Origin: Solirubrobacterales bacterium
Lineage (GTDB): Bacteria; Actinomycetota; Thermoleophilia; Solirubrobacterales; Solirubrobacteraceae
Reading direction: 5' to 3'
Assembly (NCBI GenBank): GCA_019240655.1
Contig: JAFAXX010000154.1
Coordinates: 6,400 to 70,399, forward strand
Length of the DNA: 64,000 nt
The number at the start of each line of letters is the position of its first letter. The stretch's first letter is position 1. Below, one piece after another: positions 53,156-56,855 of this stretch. The translations under genes and the position numbers were made by a program. Under the pieces are notes generated by a model that was not told the origin of the DNA, ran no database searches, and saw only the letters and a list, made by a program, of their open reading frames with translations.

Positions 53156-53584
53156 CTACTTGATCGACCGCCCCGAGGCGGCGATCGCCGGCCAGTAGCC
53201 ACCCGACTGATAGATGTTGATGTTCCTGGTCTCGCCCGCGGCATGATCGCCGATGTAGGTGTAGAGCGGATGGCCGGCGTAGGTCACCTGCTTGCCGACG
53301 CCGGGGACGGTGATCGTGCCGATCAGGCGGCGATTGACCCCCCGGCCGGCGGTGGGGTGAGCGGAGGCGAGCGCCGGCCACACATACAGGCAGCCGGAGA
53401 GCTTGACGCAGACGTCGCGGTTGCGGCTGTCCCGGCTGAAGGTGTAGAGGGTGTACCCGCGGCTGTTGACGAGGATCGTTCCGACCCCGGTCTGGCGCAG
53501 CTGCAGCGTCGGACGTGCGCTGGCGAAGGCGGACCCGCCGGCCAGCGAACCGATGAAGACCAGCACCAGCAAGCGACTACGCAC
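53156..53584 (-). CDS. Secreted protein of the COG4315/PF03640 'secreted repeat' family
   Basis: GTG 53584, then signal LLVLVFIGSLAGGSAFASA. Two repeats of the G..L....G.TLY.F..D and G.PLYTY.GD pattern. Confidence 0.7.
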   Translation of the reverse strand: MRSRLLVLVFIGSLAGGSAFASARPTLQLRQTGVGTILVNSRGYTLYTFSRDSRNRDVCVKLSGCLYVWPALASAHPTAGRGVNRRLIGTITVPGVGKQVTYAGHPLYTYIGDHAAGETRNINIYQSGGYWPAIAASGRSIK

Positions 53585-53741
53585 GACACCCTCCTCAGAC
53601 TCGTAATCGGTGGCGCTCACCGGCCTCAGGCGCCTCTACACCTGCGCTCACACGGGCAGGCAGCGCCAACGCTATCAAGCGCCGCCTGGATAGCCGGGTG
53701 TTCCTAGCCGCGCGGGGAGCACGACGATGCCCGCGGCATGA

Positions 53742-55352
53742 TTGAATCCGCGCGGAACGGAGTCGAGCTTGGGAGCCGAGCTGAAACGGACGATCATCGG
53801 TGCGGCGATCGCCGTCGCCCTCACGTTGGCGATGCTGGTCCCGGCGGCCGCCGCCGCCTCAGACGGAGTCGAGCACCTGCACTTCGCGGCTGGGCCCTAC
53901 CGGGTGATACCGGGCGCCAACCTGATCCTCGATCAGCTGAACAACGTCCCGAAGCCGACGGTCAACGGCTTCATGGTCCGGATGAAGCCGAACCTGGTGT
54001 ACGCGCAGCCGAACGGGAAATGCTGCGGGAAGGTTCCGTCCACCTCGGTCATCCATCTCCATCACGGCGTCTGGTTGAGCAACGGCGCCGCCGGCCAGGG
54101 CGAGGGCGAGGGAACTTCCTACGGAGGCTTCTATCCGTTCATGGCCGCCGGCGAGGAAAAGACGACGTACGAGTTCCCACCCGGCTTCGGCTATCCGATC
54201 GGCGCCGGCGACAAATGGATCCTCAACTACATGATCCATAACCTCACCGACAAGCCGAAGTCCGTCTACATCACCTACGACATCGATTTCGTACCCGAGA
54301 CCTCCGCCGTGGCCTCGACGATCGCTCCGATCCACCCGATCTGGATGGACGTCGAGGACGATCACATCTATCCCGTCTTCAACGTGCACCGGCACAGCGG
54401 GCGCGACGGCAGGTTCACCTTCCCCGACATGGCGAAGAATCCGTACGGCGGCGGACGGCCGCTCAACCTGTTCACGGTCGACCATCCGGGCACACTGGTC
54501 GCCACGGCCGGCCACCTGCACCCGGGCGGCCTCTACGACGAACTCGATCTCCTGCGTCCGGGCGCGCGGCCGCGCCCCGGCACGACTCCGGGGAGCGTGC
54601 CCGGCTCGGTCCGCCTGTTCCGCTCTTACGCGAGGTACTGGGACCCACACCACGCCCCGGTGTCATGGGACGTGTCGATGACGGCGACGCGGGCAGACTG
54701 GCGACCGGCGGTCAAGTCGGGCGACGTCCTTCGCATCAGCGCGACCTACGAGACCAAGCTCGCCTCGTGGTACGAGGTGATGGGCATCATGGTGGTGTGG
54801 GAGCAGTGGAACAGCGACCAGGGCATCGATCCCTTCTCGCATCGACTCGATCAGGTCGGAGAGGTCACTCACGGTCACCTGCCCGAGAACTTCGACTACG
54901 GCGGCACGCAGTTCCTCGGTGTCAATCCCACCTCCGCGCCGCTGTGTGACACCCACAAGGTGCTGATCGCCGGGTTCAGCTACATCCCGGTCACCAGGGG
55001 CAACTCGAACTGCGATCCGACGATCAGGCGGGGTCAGTCGCTCACCTTCGTCAACGCGGATGCCAGCGCCAGCCCGCTGAGCAAGTTGAACCCGATCGCG
55101 CCGGACGCGCTATACCTGGCGTCGGTCTTCCACACGGTGACCTCGTGCGCCGGCCCCTGTCGGCTGAATTACGGCATTGCCTATCCACTCTCCAACGGAG
55201 CAGGCGATTACGACTCGGGCGAGCTCGGGATCGGAACGCCCGGCGTCGGGCGGGTGAGCTGGAGCACCCCGACGACGCTGGGGCCGGGCACCTACACCTA
55301 TTACTGTCGCATTCACCCGTGGATGCGCGGAGTGTTCCGCATCCTCGGATAA
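53742..55352 (+). CDS. Secreted copper protein: PHM/DBH-like Cu2-monooxygenase-type core plus a C-terminal amicyanin-like cupredoxin domain
   Basis: Signal peptide ...LVPAAAAAS. Motifs: VIHLHHGVW, FPPGFGYPIGAGDKWILNYMIHNL, GHLHPGG and WYEVMGIM. C-terminal VFHTV...YYCRIHPWM has C-x2-H-x2-M spacing. The start is TTG 53742 or TTG 53769. Confidence 0.7.
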   Translation: MNPRGTESSLGAELKRTIIGAAIAVALTLAMLVPAAAAASDGVEHLHFAAGPYRVIPGANLILDQLNNVPKPTVNGFMVRMKPNLVYAQPNGKCCGKVPSTSVIHLHHGVWLSNGAAGQGEGEGTSYGGFYPFMAAGEEKTTYEFPPGFGYPIGAGDKWILNYMIHNLTDKPKSVYITYDIDFVPETSAVASTIAPIHPIWMDVEDDHIYPVFNVHRHSGRDGRFTFPDMAKNPYGGGRPLNLFTVDHPGTLVATAGHLHPGGLYDELDLLRPGARPRPGTTPGSVPGSVRLFRSYARYWDPHHAPVSWDVSMTATRADWRPAVKSGDVLRISATYETKLASWYEVMGIMVVWEQWNSDQGIDPFSHRLDQVGEVTHGHLPENFDYGGTQFLGVNPTSAPLCDTHKVLIAGFSYIPVTRGNSNCDPTIRRGQSLTFVNADASASPLSKLNPIAPDALYLASVFHTVTSCAGPCRLNYGIAYPLSNGAGDYDSGELGIGTPGVGRVSWSTPTTLGPGTYTYYCRIHPWMRGVFRILG

Positions 55353-55506: not shown

Positions 55507-55707
55507 ATGAGAGGGGGGATCCCCGTGGCCAACGCCAAGTTCGTGATCTACAAGGACCACGCGGAGAAGTACCGCTGGCGCCTCGTCTCGACGAACGGCC
55601 AGACGACCGCCAGCTCGGGCGAGAGCTTCGCCTCACACGGCGACGCCAAGCGCGCCGCCGAGCACGTAAAGGAGCACGCCGCGACGGCGGACGTCGTCGA
55701 CGAGTAG
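55507..55707 (+). CDS. YegP/DUF1508 (UPF0339) family protein
   Basis: AKFVIYKDHAEKYRWRLVSTNGQTTASSGESFASHGDAKRAAEHVKE. The start may be GTG 55525. Confidence 0.8.
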   Translation: MRGGIPVANAKFVIYKDHAEKYRWRLVSTNGQTTASSGESFASHGDAKRAAEHVKEHAATADVVDE

Positions 55708-55850: not shown

Positions 55851-56855
55851 TCAGAACGGCGAGGAGCTGGCGAGGCCGAGCGCGCGGCCGAGGTCGAGAG
55901 GCCAGCTGCCGTCGTCGAGCCACGGACGCCCGATCCACAGGTAGGCGTCGGCGTAGCGCGCGGCCAGCGCCCGGGCGCGCGCCGACAGCCGCCAGCGACG
56001 GTCGGCCACGTGCCAGGTCGGAGGGATGCCGAGGGTCGCGCAGACGGTGTCCGTGCGGTCTCGGCAGACGCGCGGGTTGTCGCGGTTGCCGCGGTACTGC
56101 CCGTAGAGGAACGGGGCTCCGTTCTCGGCGGTGTTGATCACCAGATGCTTGCCGGTGATTCCCAGGCGGCCGAGGCGCCGCTCGATCTGCGCGCCGAACC
56201 GGAGCTCGTTCGCGGTGCTGTCGTACTGCGTGGCGTTGAGCGCGAAGCCACGGACCTGGCCGATCCCGGCTTGGCGCAGCAGCCGGGCGGTCCGCGCCGG
56301 CGAGGTCCAGTAGGCGGCGCCGGCATCGATGTAGACAGTGGTGTGCGGCAGCGCGCTGAAACGAGCGGTGGCGTAGGCGACCAGCTCGAGGGGCGTGCGC
56401 GAGGGGGCGCAGAGTGCGAACGGGAGGTCCGGCTGGAGGATGAGCGCGACCCGCGCGGTCCCGATGCCCGCGGCGAAGTCGTCGATCCACTTCTCGTAGG
56501 CGCCCTGCTGCGCGGCGTTCGGCGTGCTCGAGCATGCCGCCGCCTCCCACGGGTCGAGGCGAAACACCGTAAGCTGGGCAAGCTCGTCGGGGTTGCCGCC
56601 CGTGTCCTGCGCGATGTACTGCGCCGCCGCGGCGCGGGCGGAGGCCTCCGAGTACCAGGCGCCGAACCAGTAGGCCAGGGGCTCGAGCGCGATCTTGGCC
56701 AGCAACGCGCGTTCCCGGCCGGTGGCCGCCTGATAGGCGGGGTAGACGCCGTCGATGCTGCCCGTGTAGTGGCCCCACCTCATGCCGGCCAGTGGGTTGG
56801 CGGCAACCGCGCCGCGCAGCCCGGCGTTGGCCGTGCCGGCGCGCGCCGCCGGCAC
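55851..56855 (-). CDS. Glycoside hydrolase family 6-like protein (divergent)
   Basis: From memory, the following match GH6 blocks: YEKWIDDFAAGIG..RVALILQPDLPFAL, VYIDAGAAYW, RGFALNATQYDST, LVINTAENG and YLWIGRPWLDDG. The RDC and EPD/PGESDG residues are substituted. See the finding on the missing start codon. Confidence 0.65.
   Translation of the reverse strand: MPAARAGTANAGLRGAVAANPLAGMRWGHYTGSIDGVYPAYQAATGRERALLAKIALEPLAYWFGAWYSEASARAAAAQYIAQDTGGNPDELAQLTVFRLDPWEAAACSSTPNAAQQGAYEKWIDDFAAGIGTARVALILQPDLPFALCAPSRTPLELVAYATARFSALPHTTVYIDAGAAYWTSPARTARLLRQAGIGQVRGFALNATQYDSTANELRFGAQIERRLGRLGITGKHLVINTAENGAPFLYGQYRGNRDNPRVCRDRTDTVCATLGIPPTWHVADRRWRLSARARALAARYADAYLWIGRPWLDDGSWPLDLGRALGLASSSPF

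Follow-up and report, generated by a model that had tools for sequence, protein, structure and literature searches.

The 64,000-nucleotide window analyzed here, a stretch of contig JAFAXX010000154.1 from a Solirubrobacterales bacterium (assembly GCA_019240655.1), carries an open reading frame (ORF) at positions 53742-55352 whose product we propose, with moderate confidence, to be a secreted three-copper monooxygenase of the peptidylglycine alpha-hydroxylating monooxygenase (PHM) type, in which electrons would pass from a type-1 copper to the core copper CuH and from there to the core copper CuM. PHM, dopamine beta-monooxygenase (DBH), and tyramine beta-monooxygenase (TBM) are type II, non-coupled binuclear copper monooxygenases that are regarded as dependent on ascorbate; PHM and DBH make hormones in animals. 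By our reading, the protein from the window would be a Sec-exported, soluble oxidoreductase whose first ~360 mature residues form a catalytic core of the PHM/DBH type, with CuH (H107, H108, and H166) serving as the electron-transfer copper or relay and CuM (H258, H260, and M347) as the O2-activating copper, and whose last ~135 residues form an amicyanin-like cupredoxin with a type-1 copper (H464, C522, H525, and M528). An external one-electron donor would reduce the exposed type-1 copper, electrons would then move within the protein from this site to CuH and on to CuM, and O2 activated at CuM would lead to hydroxylation of a C-H bond of an extracellular substrate; the tethered cupredoxin would thereby replace the ascorbate of the animal enzymes. 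A PHM/DBH-like core joined to a cupredoxin was already the content of the original prediction, made from the sequence of the window, and it is supported by the predicted fold, by ligand conservation, and by cupredoxin homology. Residue numbers throughout follow the 536-residue frame from TTG 53742, and coordinates of the features are collected in Table 1.

The fold of the protein was examined by comparing AlphaFold models with PDB structures using Foldseek. A first model, built with 40 close homologues, had a predicted local distance difference test (pLDDT) score of 73, and places 1-21 of its Foldseek matches were all PHM or DBH, with E values of about 1e-7. With the alignment enlarged by 38 relatives at 36-50% identity, a second model (m0cd87536fb7a) reached a pLDDT of 89.8 and a predicted template modeling (pTM) score of 0.87, with every segment at or above 50, and the PDB ranks 1-30 were again all PHM or DBH (E 3.5e-9 to 6e-7, probability 1.00), which is the outcome that the original prediction called for in a structure comparison. 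PNGase F first appeared at rank 44 (E 1.6e-3). Foldseek also matched structures that contain cupredoxin domains, namely the copper nitrite reductase TsNirK (6hbe), a multicopper oxidase from Nitrosopumilus whose C-terminal domain is a cupredoxin, and amicyanin. Altogether, the models predict a catalytic core of the PHM/DBH type, built from two jelly-roll domains. The best superpositions were with 6ala_A (TMt 0.58) and with DBH 4zel chain A, the latter having the lowest root mean square deviation (rmsd). 6ALA and 4ZEL chain A are "closed" conformers, in which the C-domain is rotated by ~18 degrees toward the N-domain (PMC6123673), and the interdomain arrangement predicted for the window protein is nearer to these closed PHM/DBH conformers than to open PHM.

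To determine how well the proposed copper ligands are retained, we aligned 284 full-length relatives at 39-100% identity (median, 51%). The CuH residues H107, H108, and H166 were present in 99.3%, 100%, and 100% of the sequences, respectively, and the CuM residues H258, H260, and M347 in 99.3%, 99.6%, and 98.9%; for the type-1 copper, the values were 99.3% for H464, 99.3% for C522, 97.5% for H525, and 97.1% for M528. The five histidines and the methionine of the core and the His/Cys/His/Met set of the cupredoxin, whose retention among homologues had been named as a check on the original prediction, are kept at 97-100%. Among 29 cluster representatives at 34-61% identity, each of these ten residues was either invariant or retained in at least 90% of the sequences. 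By comparison, H45, H198, and H248, histidines outside the proposed ligand set, showed conservation of merely 50-69%. In these alignments, conservation of the ligand motifs is far above the chance level.

We then compared the family with PHM at the level of sequence profiles, using a rat PHM core sequence checked against PDB 4e4z and an alignment of 30 PHM sequences. When the N-domain of the family was aligned by hhalign with the N-domain of PHM (profile A2), an E value of 5e-5 and a probability of 67% were obtained, with H107/H108 placed on H107/H108 of PHM and H166 on H172. With a profile of 285 sequences, the N-domain gave a P value of 0.007, compared to 0.14 for the reversed control. The single best local match paired the block PPGFGYPIG with LPKGVGFRVGG of PHM, and the whole-core and sub-region comparisons placed the HxH motif on PHM H242/H244 and GDVLRI on GDILAA. 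By its position after the GDVLRI/GDILAA strand, M347 would be the counterpart of PHM M314, and the secondary-structure context of H258, H260, and M347 in the model is compatible with PHM, the HxH register being of low confidence. The original prediction had lined the protein up with PHM block by block; hhalign recovered the H107/H108, H166, HxH, and GDVLRI blocks, with marginal scores, but gave no confident alignment of the Met block. The CuH site, with its His-His pair and third His, can thus be matched to PHM with modest alignment statistics, and we take the sequence alignment as corroboration of a case that rests on fold and conservation.

Homology of the C-terminal domain to cupredoxins is seen over the whole domain. 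In an hmmsearch of PDB sequences with a profile of this domain made from 24 divergent members, amicyanins were retrieved with E values of 6e-6 to 2e-5, and places 1-16 were all cupredoxins. In hhalign, the domain matched amicyanin residues 23-104 with a probability of 95.7% and an E value of 8.5e-9, and the CRIHPWM loop aligned residue for residue on the amicyanin loop CTPHPFM (C92, H95, and M98); Foldseek matched amicyanin with a probability of 1.00 and a TMt of 0.52. These results bear out the amicyanin-type blue-copper domain of the original prediction, and the sequence carries the full type-1 ligand set His...Cys-x2-His-x2-Met. H464 falls at most 3 residues from amicyanin His53 in the alignment, where the register is ambiguous beside the insertion that follows it; by eye, FHTVT pairs with PHNVH. 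The curated cupredoxin models PF00127, PF13473, and TIGR02657 stayed below threshold, the best score among excised domains of relatives being 17.9 bits versus a required 21.2. Directly after the type-1 His, C469 and C473 (98% conserved) probably form a disulfide.

The fusion of core and cupredoxin is constant across the family as judged from its sequences, and the four type-1 copper ligands were kept in all 29 divergent full-length representatives. Sequences that at first seemed to lack the cupredoxin or to be fused to a cytochrome proved to be frameshifted or truncated, and none of the representatives examined had a heme motif. Some relatives carry additional domains. The divergent representative P0158 (1211 residues) continues beyond core and cupredoxin with a PQQ-type beta-propeller (PF13360/PF01011) and with another plastocyanin domain (PF00127, E 3.9e-8), possibly a natural fusion with a dehydrogenase-like partner. 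P0418 and P0440 (L089, 7001-8761) bear C-terminal RTX/HemolysinCabind (PF00353) extensions, which suggest another mode of export or of calcium binding in some lineages.

The distribution of cysteines points to a contact between the two parts of the protein. C94, C95, C402, and C424 behave as a set, with all four present in 119 sequences, none in 161, and a mixture in only 4, so that the mature proteins contain 7 or 3 cysteines; this odd count fits a complement of disulfides plus one free cysteine, Cys522. We infer that the four residues form two subfamily-specific disulfides linking the CuH loop to the cupredoxin. Since these cysteines co-occur, the CuH loop would touch the cupredoxin, and such a contact would favor electron entry via CuH. 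Several other residues are conserved to a similar extent as the ligands, i.e., H105 in the HLHH motif (54054-54056; 98% in the 284 sequences), H377 in the linker motif THGHLPEN (98.2%), and GEEKT (EEKT being E138-T141, 54153-54164), FDSG, R523, and R529 (all ~98%). H105, H377, and GEEKT might belong to an electron-transfer path, to a fourth metal site, or to a site that binds the substrate.

The residues expected to bind the substrate differ from those of PHM. With the copper ligands as anchors, we located the positions of the PHM substrate residues R240, N316, and Y318, which vary little or not at all among 30 PHM-family sequences; the window family has Ala256, Ile349, and Val/Pro351 there. 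As the peptide-binding residues of PHM are absent, the residues at these positions indicate that the substrate is not a peptidyl-glycine.

Several results weigh against assigning the protein to the PHM type. Pfam models PF01082 (Cu2_monooxygen) and PF03712 (Cu2_monoox_C), named in the original prediction as a check, detected neither the window protein nor its relatives: the window protein had no Pfam match at all, even at E <= 10 and with PF07712 included, and the Cu2-monooxygenase models matched none of 29 divergent relatives and, non-significantly, 1 of 69 (Cu2_monoox_C, E 0.27). Judged by sequence, the window protein thus falls outside PF01082 and PF03712. The profile-profile scores against PHM were marginal, with the E value of 5e-5 as the best and P values of 0.007-0.08 otherwise; the latter came from the 285-sequence profile, for which reversed controls were weaker still (0.14-0.6). 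Comparison of the family profile with a single PHM sequence by hhalign was not significant, and a search of PDB sequences with the family profile retrieved neither PHM nor DBH, protein and profile finding the cupredoxin loop only. The HxH motif fell on PHM H242/H244 in 3 of 4 hhalign runs at low confidence, one C-domain run being in a different register, and the M347 segment was never confidently aligned to the PHM methionine. The Foldseek TM-scores to PHM were moderate (0.40-0.58, with an rmsd of 7-10 Å); the score against open PHM is probably lowered in part by a difference in domain orientation. Furthermore, the PHM scheme does not explain the ~98% conserved H105 and H377 or the GEEKT motif, and no consistently adjacent redox partner, copper chaperone, or substrate-related gene was found in the neighborhoods examined, for which counts cover 80 related loci.

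The same copper sites might serve another chemistry, the protein being an oxidase or other redox enzyme rather than a C-H hydroxylase; the type-1 copper could, for example, be the place or the conduit of substrate oxidation while the core sites reduce O2, or peroxide or nitrogen oxides could be handled. NirK and multicopper oxidases do use a tethered or internal type-1 copper, and both kinds are in the Foldseek list (6hbe and 9cck). The absence of the PHM substrate-binding residues would suit such an enzyme, the conserved H105, H377, and GEEKT could build a site that PHM does not have, and in the closed PHM/DBH conformers, which the model resembles, a single copper is bound by residues of both copper sites. 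Against this stands the CuM-type methionine, typical of an O2-activating site and 98.9% conserved in the family; to our knowledge, moreover, the His3 plus His2Met pattern on the PHM fold occurs only in hydroxylating monooxygenases (PHM, DBH, and TBM). We therefore regard a different chemistry as rather unlikely.

Two further explanations would do away with catalysis at copper. In one, the fold would merely be reused in a non-catalytic copper protein for extracellular buffering, trafficking, or electron carriage, as might befit a secreted protein with many conserved His, Met, and Cys residues, for which no operon partner is conserved and which JGI in many cases labels simply "plastocyanin." Yet a two-domain core of 360 residues with two discrete, near-perfectly conserved ligand sets of the enzyme type exceeds what buffering needs, and cop, cus, or csp-type genes were linked to the gene in none of the neighborhoods examined; we consider this explanation improbable. 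In the other, the protein would be a metal-free double jelly-roll, PNGase F-like or carbohydrate binding, whose likeness to the PHM histidines is coincidental. The double jelly-roll fold does unite PHM and PNGase F in Pfam clan CL0612, where PNGase F represents the bacterial branch (PMC8812541); PNGase F was also matched by Foldseek, and a glycoside hydrolase gene of family GH6 lies nearby. The Foldseek E values of PHM and DBH are better than that of PNGase F by about six orders of magnitude, however, the His and Met residues at PHM-equivalent positions are 99-100% conserved, an obligatory fusion to a redox cupredoxin would be senseless in a glycosidase, and the GH6 gene accompanies only 1 of the 80 loci, so that this last possibility appears very remote indeed. 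The reading as a PHM-type monooxygenase fed by its own cupredoxin also draws on an analogy, as an intramolecular electron feed matches the design logic proposed for the tethered cupredoxin in TsNirK.

The gene encoding this protein was examined for its start and export signal. The 536-codon frame was confirmed as uninterrupted, every motif quoted in the original prediction was found at its residue, and the Sec signal proposed there has the standard K/R n-region, hydrophobic helix, and AAA/AS end. Translation likely starts at TTG 53769, on the grounds that gene callers, homologues, and a GGAG at 53759-53762 agree on it: the 527-residue product, which begins 9 codons downstream of TTG 53742, is called on three public contigs (100% identical, P0001), one of them from the metagenome-assembled genome (MAG) assembly GCA_019246535.1; the starts of homologues coincide with the equivalent M-K/R-R position; and the spacing from GGAG to the TTG, read from the DNA, is six bases. 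Either start yields a Sec-type signal peptide. An N-terminal signal helix is present in both AlphaFold models, the same signal feature occurs in 40 homologues, and both a twin-arginine motif and a lipobox are absent from the signal region of the window protein. A 264-residue antisense ORF (53859-54653, minus strand) was discarded as a typical high-GC shadow of the real gene. The gene itself is genuine and has been kept under selection.

Table 1. Features of the proposed copper protein and its neighbors (coordinates in the window; residues numbered from TTG 53742)
Feature	Coordinates	Strand	Remarks
PF03640 (Lipoprotein_15/COG4315) protein, divergent, secreted	53156..53620	-	Pfam E 5e-17
ORF, 536 residues from TTG 53742	53742..55352	+	Uninterrupted frame; stop 55350-55352
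Probable ribosome-binding site GGAG (53759-53762) and probable true start TTG (53769-53771)	53759..53771	+	527-residue product
Sec-type signal peptide, residues 10-39	53769..53858	+	LKR n-region, hydrophobic core, AAAAA/S
N-terminal jelly-roll, predicted counterpart of PHM CuH domain, residues ~42-200	53865..54341	+	Foldseek, hhalign
C94-C95, vicinal pair in loop before CuH HLHH motif	54021..54026	+	All-or-none with C402 and C424
H107-H108, proposed CuH ligands (HLHH motif)	54060..54065	+	Align to PHM H107/H108
H166, proposed third CuH ligand (NYMIHNL)	54237..54239	+	On PHM H172 in every hhalign run
Second jelly-roll, predicted counterpart of PHM CuM domain, residues ~201-372	54342..54857	+	Foldseek; SURNod19 matches of relatives fall here
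H258-L-H260, proposed CuM ligands (AGHLHPGG)	54513..54521	+	Strand-turn-strand hairpin by DSSP
M347, proposed CuM methionine (WYE-x-MGIM)	54780..54782	+	Just before beta-strand
H377, linker motif THGHLPEN	54870..54872	+	98.2% conserved
Amicyanin-type cupredoxin domain, residues ~401-536	54942..55349	+	~25-residue insertion after first His ligand
C402 and C424, start of cupredoxin	54945-54947; 55011-55013	+	All-or-none with C94/C95
H464, proposed N-terminal His ligand of type-1 copper (FHTVT)	55131..55133	+	
C469-x3-C473 (TSCAGPC), directly after type-1 His	55146..55160	+	98% conserved
C522-R-I-H525-P-W-M528, type-1 copper loop	55305..55325	+	Amicyanin C-x2-H-x2-M spacing
DUF1508/YegP-family gene	55507..55707	+	
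GH6-family glycoside hydrolase gene	55851..56855	-	500 bp downstream; 1 of 80 related loci

The family to which the protein belongs is large. At least 3,879 homologues were found in a collection of 5.8 billion proteins; the best 120 of them are full-length, at 63-79% identity, and without any Pfam domain, and where named they are labeled "hypothetical protein" or "plastocyanin," the latter being used by JGI for many. An exhaustive profile search of representatives at 50% identity yielded 1,698 clusters at E <= 0.001, 349 of them at E <= 1e-30, and relatives are encoded in at least 577 species-representative genomes of GTDB. The 80 genomes with the best matches all belong to the Actinomycetota (Solirubrobacterales, Thermoleophilaceae, Acidimicrobiia, and Actinomycetes), and most are soil MAGs. 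When the window protein was scanned against NCBIfam, the sole match was amicyanin TIGR02657 (E 0.025, 15 bits versus a cutoff of 110), at residues 514-530. Relatives scanned singly gave more: Cupredoxin_1 matched 50 of 69, and SURNod19 (PF07712) matched 5 relatives in the set of 29 and 10 in the set of 69, the lowest E value being 1e-6. P0132 scored 25.7 bits against SURNod19, where the gathering score is 25, over model positions 276-368 of 377, and the SURNod19 matches of the relatives (P0132, P0421, and 8 others) cover positions ~268-368 of 377, which correspond to the region from HxH to Met. SURNod19 is, in these scans, the closest named family by sequence for the N-terminal core; the window protein itself lies outside PF07712 and would be related to it at the level of the superfamily.

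The proposed enzyme combines features of several known systems. It resembles PHM, DBH, and TBM (PF01082 plus PF03712) in being extracytoplasmic, in its predicted two-jelly-roll core, and in having His-His...His in the first domain, followed by a candidate His-x-His...Met set in the second, with an order and a secondary-structure setting of the two sets that are compatible with those enzymes. It differs in that its sequence identity to those enzymes is about 10%, with their family models blind to it; its core is 361 residues long, compared to 310 in PHM, with several insertions; and the conserved cysteines of PHM have no counterpart, the seven cysteines of the window protein lying elsewhere. 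Whereas the animal enzymes use ascorbate, the covalently fused type-1 copper domain implies a protein electron donor. The PHM/DBH/TBM class is regarded as eukaryotic and the window family is bacterial (Actinomycetota); a 2022 analysis describes PHM as widespread in eukaryotes and PNGase F as widespread in bacteria (PMC8812541). The cupredoxin domain has the identical C-x2-H-x2-M loop and conserved upstream His of the amicyanin/plastocyanin family, but amicyanin is a free-standing carrier, whereas here the domain is the C-terminal part of a putative enzyme and holds a conserved C-x3-C in its ~25-residue insertion, and the window family has no link to methylamine dehydrogenase genes. TsNirK, a three-domain copper nitrite reductase matched through the cupredoxin both by sequence and by Foldseek, likewise joins a catalytic copper core to an extra C-terminal type-1 copper domain, which has been proposed as a built-in electron entry point (PMC6400189). 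Its core is unrelated, consisting of two cupredoxin domains with a type-2 site at the trimer interface, as opposed to the PHM-type double jelly-roll predicted here. Our full-text literature searches turned up neither a PHM/DBH-like core with a fused cupredoxin nor a bacterial member of the PHM/DBH class, consistent with the earlier claim that no enzyme with this architecture has been characterized.

The only named family touched by the core sequence, SURNod19/MtN19 (PF07712), is a secreted family of plants and fungi. The function of Nod19 is unknown (PMC9632046). In bean, Nod19 has been validated as a target of miR398, a microRNA of copper economy, and it follows the copper supply, as does Cu/Zn superoxide dismutase (PMC3882225); such regulation would suit a copper protein. 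The alignment with the window family is limited to the last ~100 of 377 model positions, and the Nod19 proteins, at ~400 residues, would by their length leave no room for a cupredoxin domain. Plant Nod19 may be an unrecognized copper enzyme of the PHM fold, as suggested by these sequence matches and by the miR398 targeting in bean.

With regard to the genomic neighborhood, the divergent secreted COG4315 protein and the YegP-family gene that the original prediction named as neighbors are both correct. A Lipoprotein_15 homologue occurs in 9 of the 80 related loci (among L007-L051), all from closer Solirubrobacterales relatives and in 8 of these upstream on the opposite strand, and another in L004 (7419-7847); the PF03640 neighbor is loosely associated only. 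The other neighbors in the window (DUF1508, DUF378, WYL, redoxin, GH6, and aminotransferase genes) are found in 0-1 of the 80 loci, and the GH6 gene is probably unrelated to the copper gene. De novo clustering of neighbors revealed a divergent CcmE/CcmF (cytochrome c maturation) block upstream in 34 of 80 loci (L005, 4704-7901, and 33 among L007-L086) and WS/DGAT downstream in 14 of 80; between the gene and CcmE/CcmF lies a conserved Cys-rich ORF of ~100 residues with a CxC...CxxC zinc-ribbon-like motif. In the window, the CcmE/CcmF block is absent, and a WS/DGAT gene lies ~4 kb downstream, not adjoining. Both associations look like lineage synteny; the adjacency to CcmE/CcmF may hint at a c-type cytochrome as the electron donor or reflect mere synteny. 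Members of a divergent subfamily have genes for secreted hydrolases (PhoD, GH1, and sulfatase) around them, with no pattern, and PhoD and GH1 were rejected as partners, being found in 0 of the 80 loci. The gene appears to be monocistronic; scans for promoters and terminators, which do not cover organisms with other promoter types, found nothing.

How electrons cross the solvent gap of ~11 Å from CuH to CuM, and whether the closed conformers are relevant to it, is a long-standing question for the PHM class. If our proposal is true, a soluble bacterial relative with a spectroscopically distinct type-1 copper of its own would make transfer from CuH to CuM easier to test, its 600 nm band would provide an optical handle for timing electron entry and intramolecular transfer, and its predicted domain arrangement is already like the closed state. 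The catalytic fold and the ligand scheme are known from PHM and DBH; what would be new are the domain architecture, the taxonomic range, and the different substrate. Only tentatively, then, the window protein may represent the first self-sufficient member of the PHM/DBH class, with a fused type-1 copper in place of ascorbate, widespread in soil Actinomycetota and acting on a non-peptide extracellular substrate, with Nod19 as a cupredoxin-less branch of the same copper-monooxygenase superfamily. This would provide a testable hypothesis for plant Nod19/MtN19, and thousands of soil-actinobacterial proteins now called "hypothetical" or mislabeled as "plastocyanin" would gain an assigned fold and a likely cofactor.

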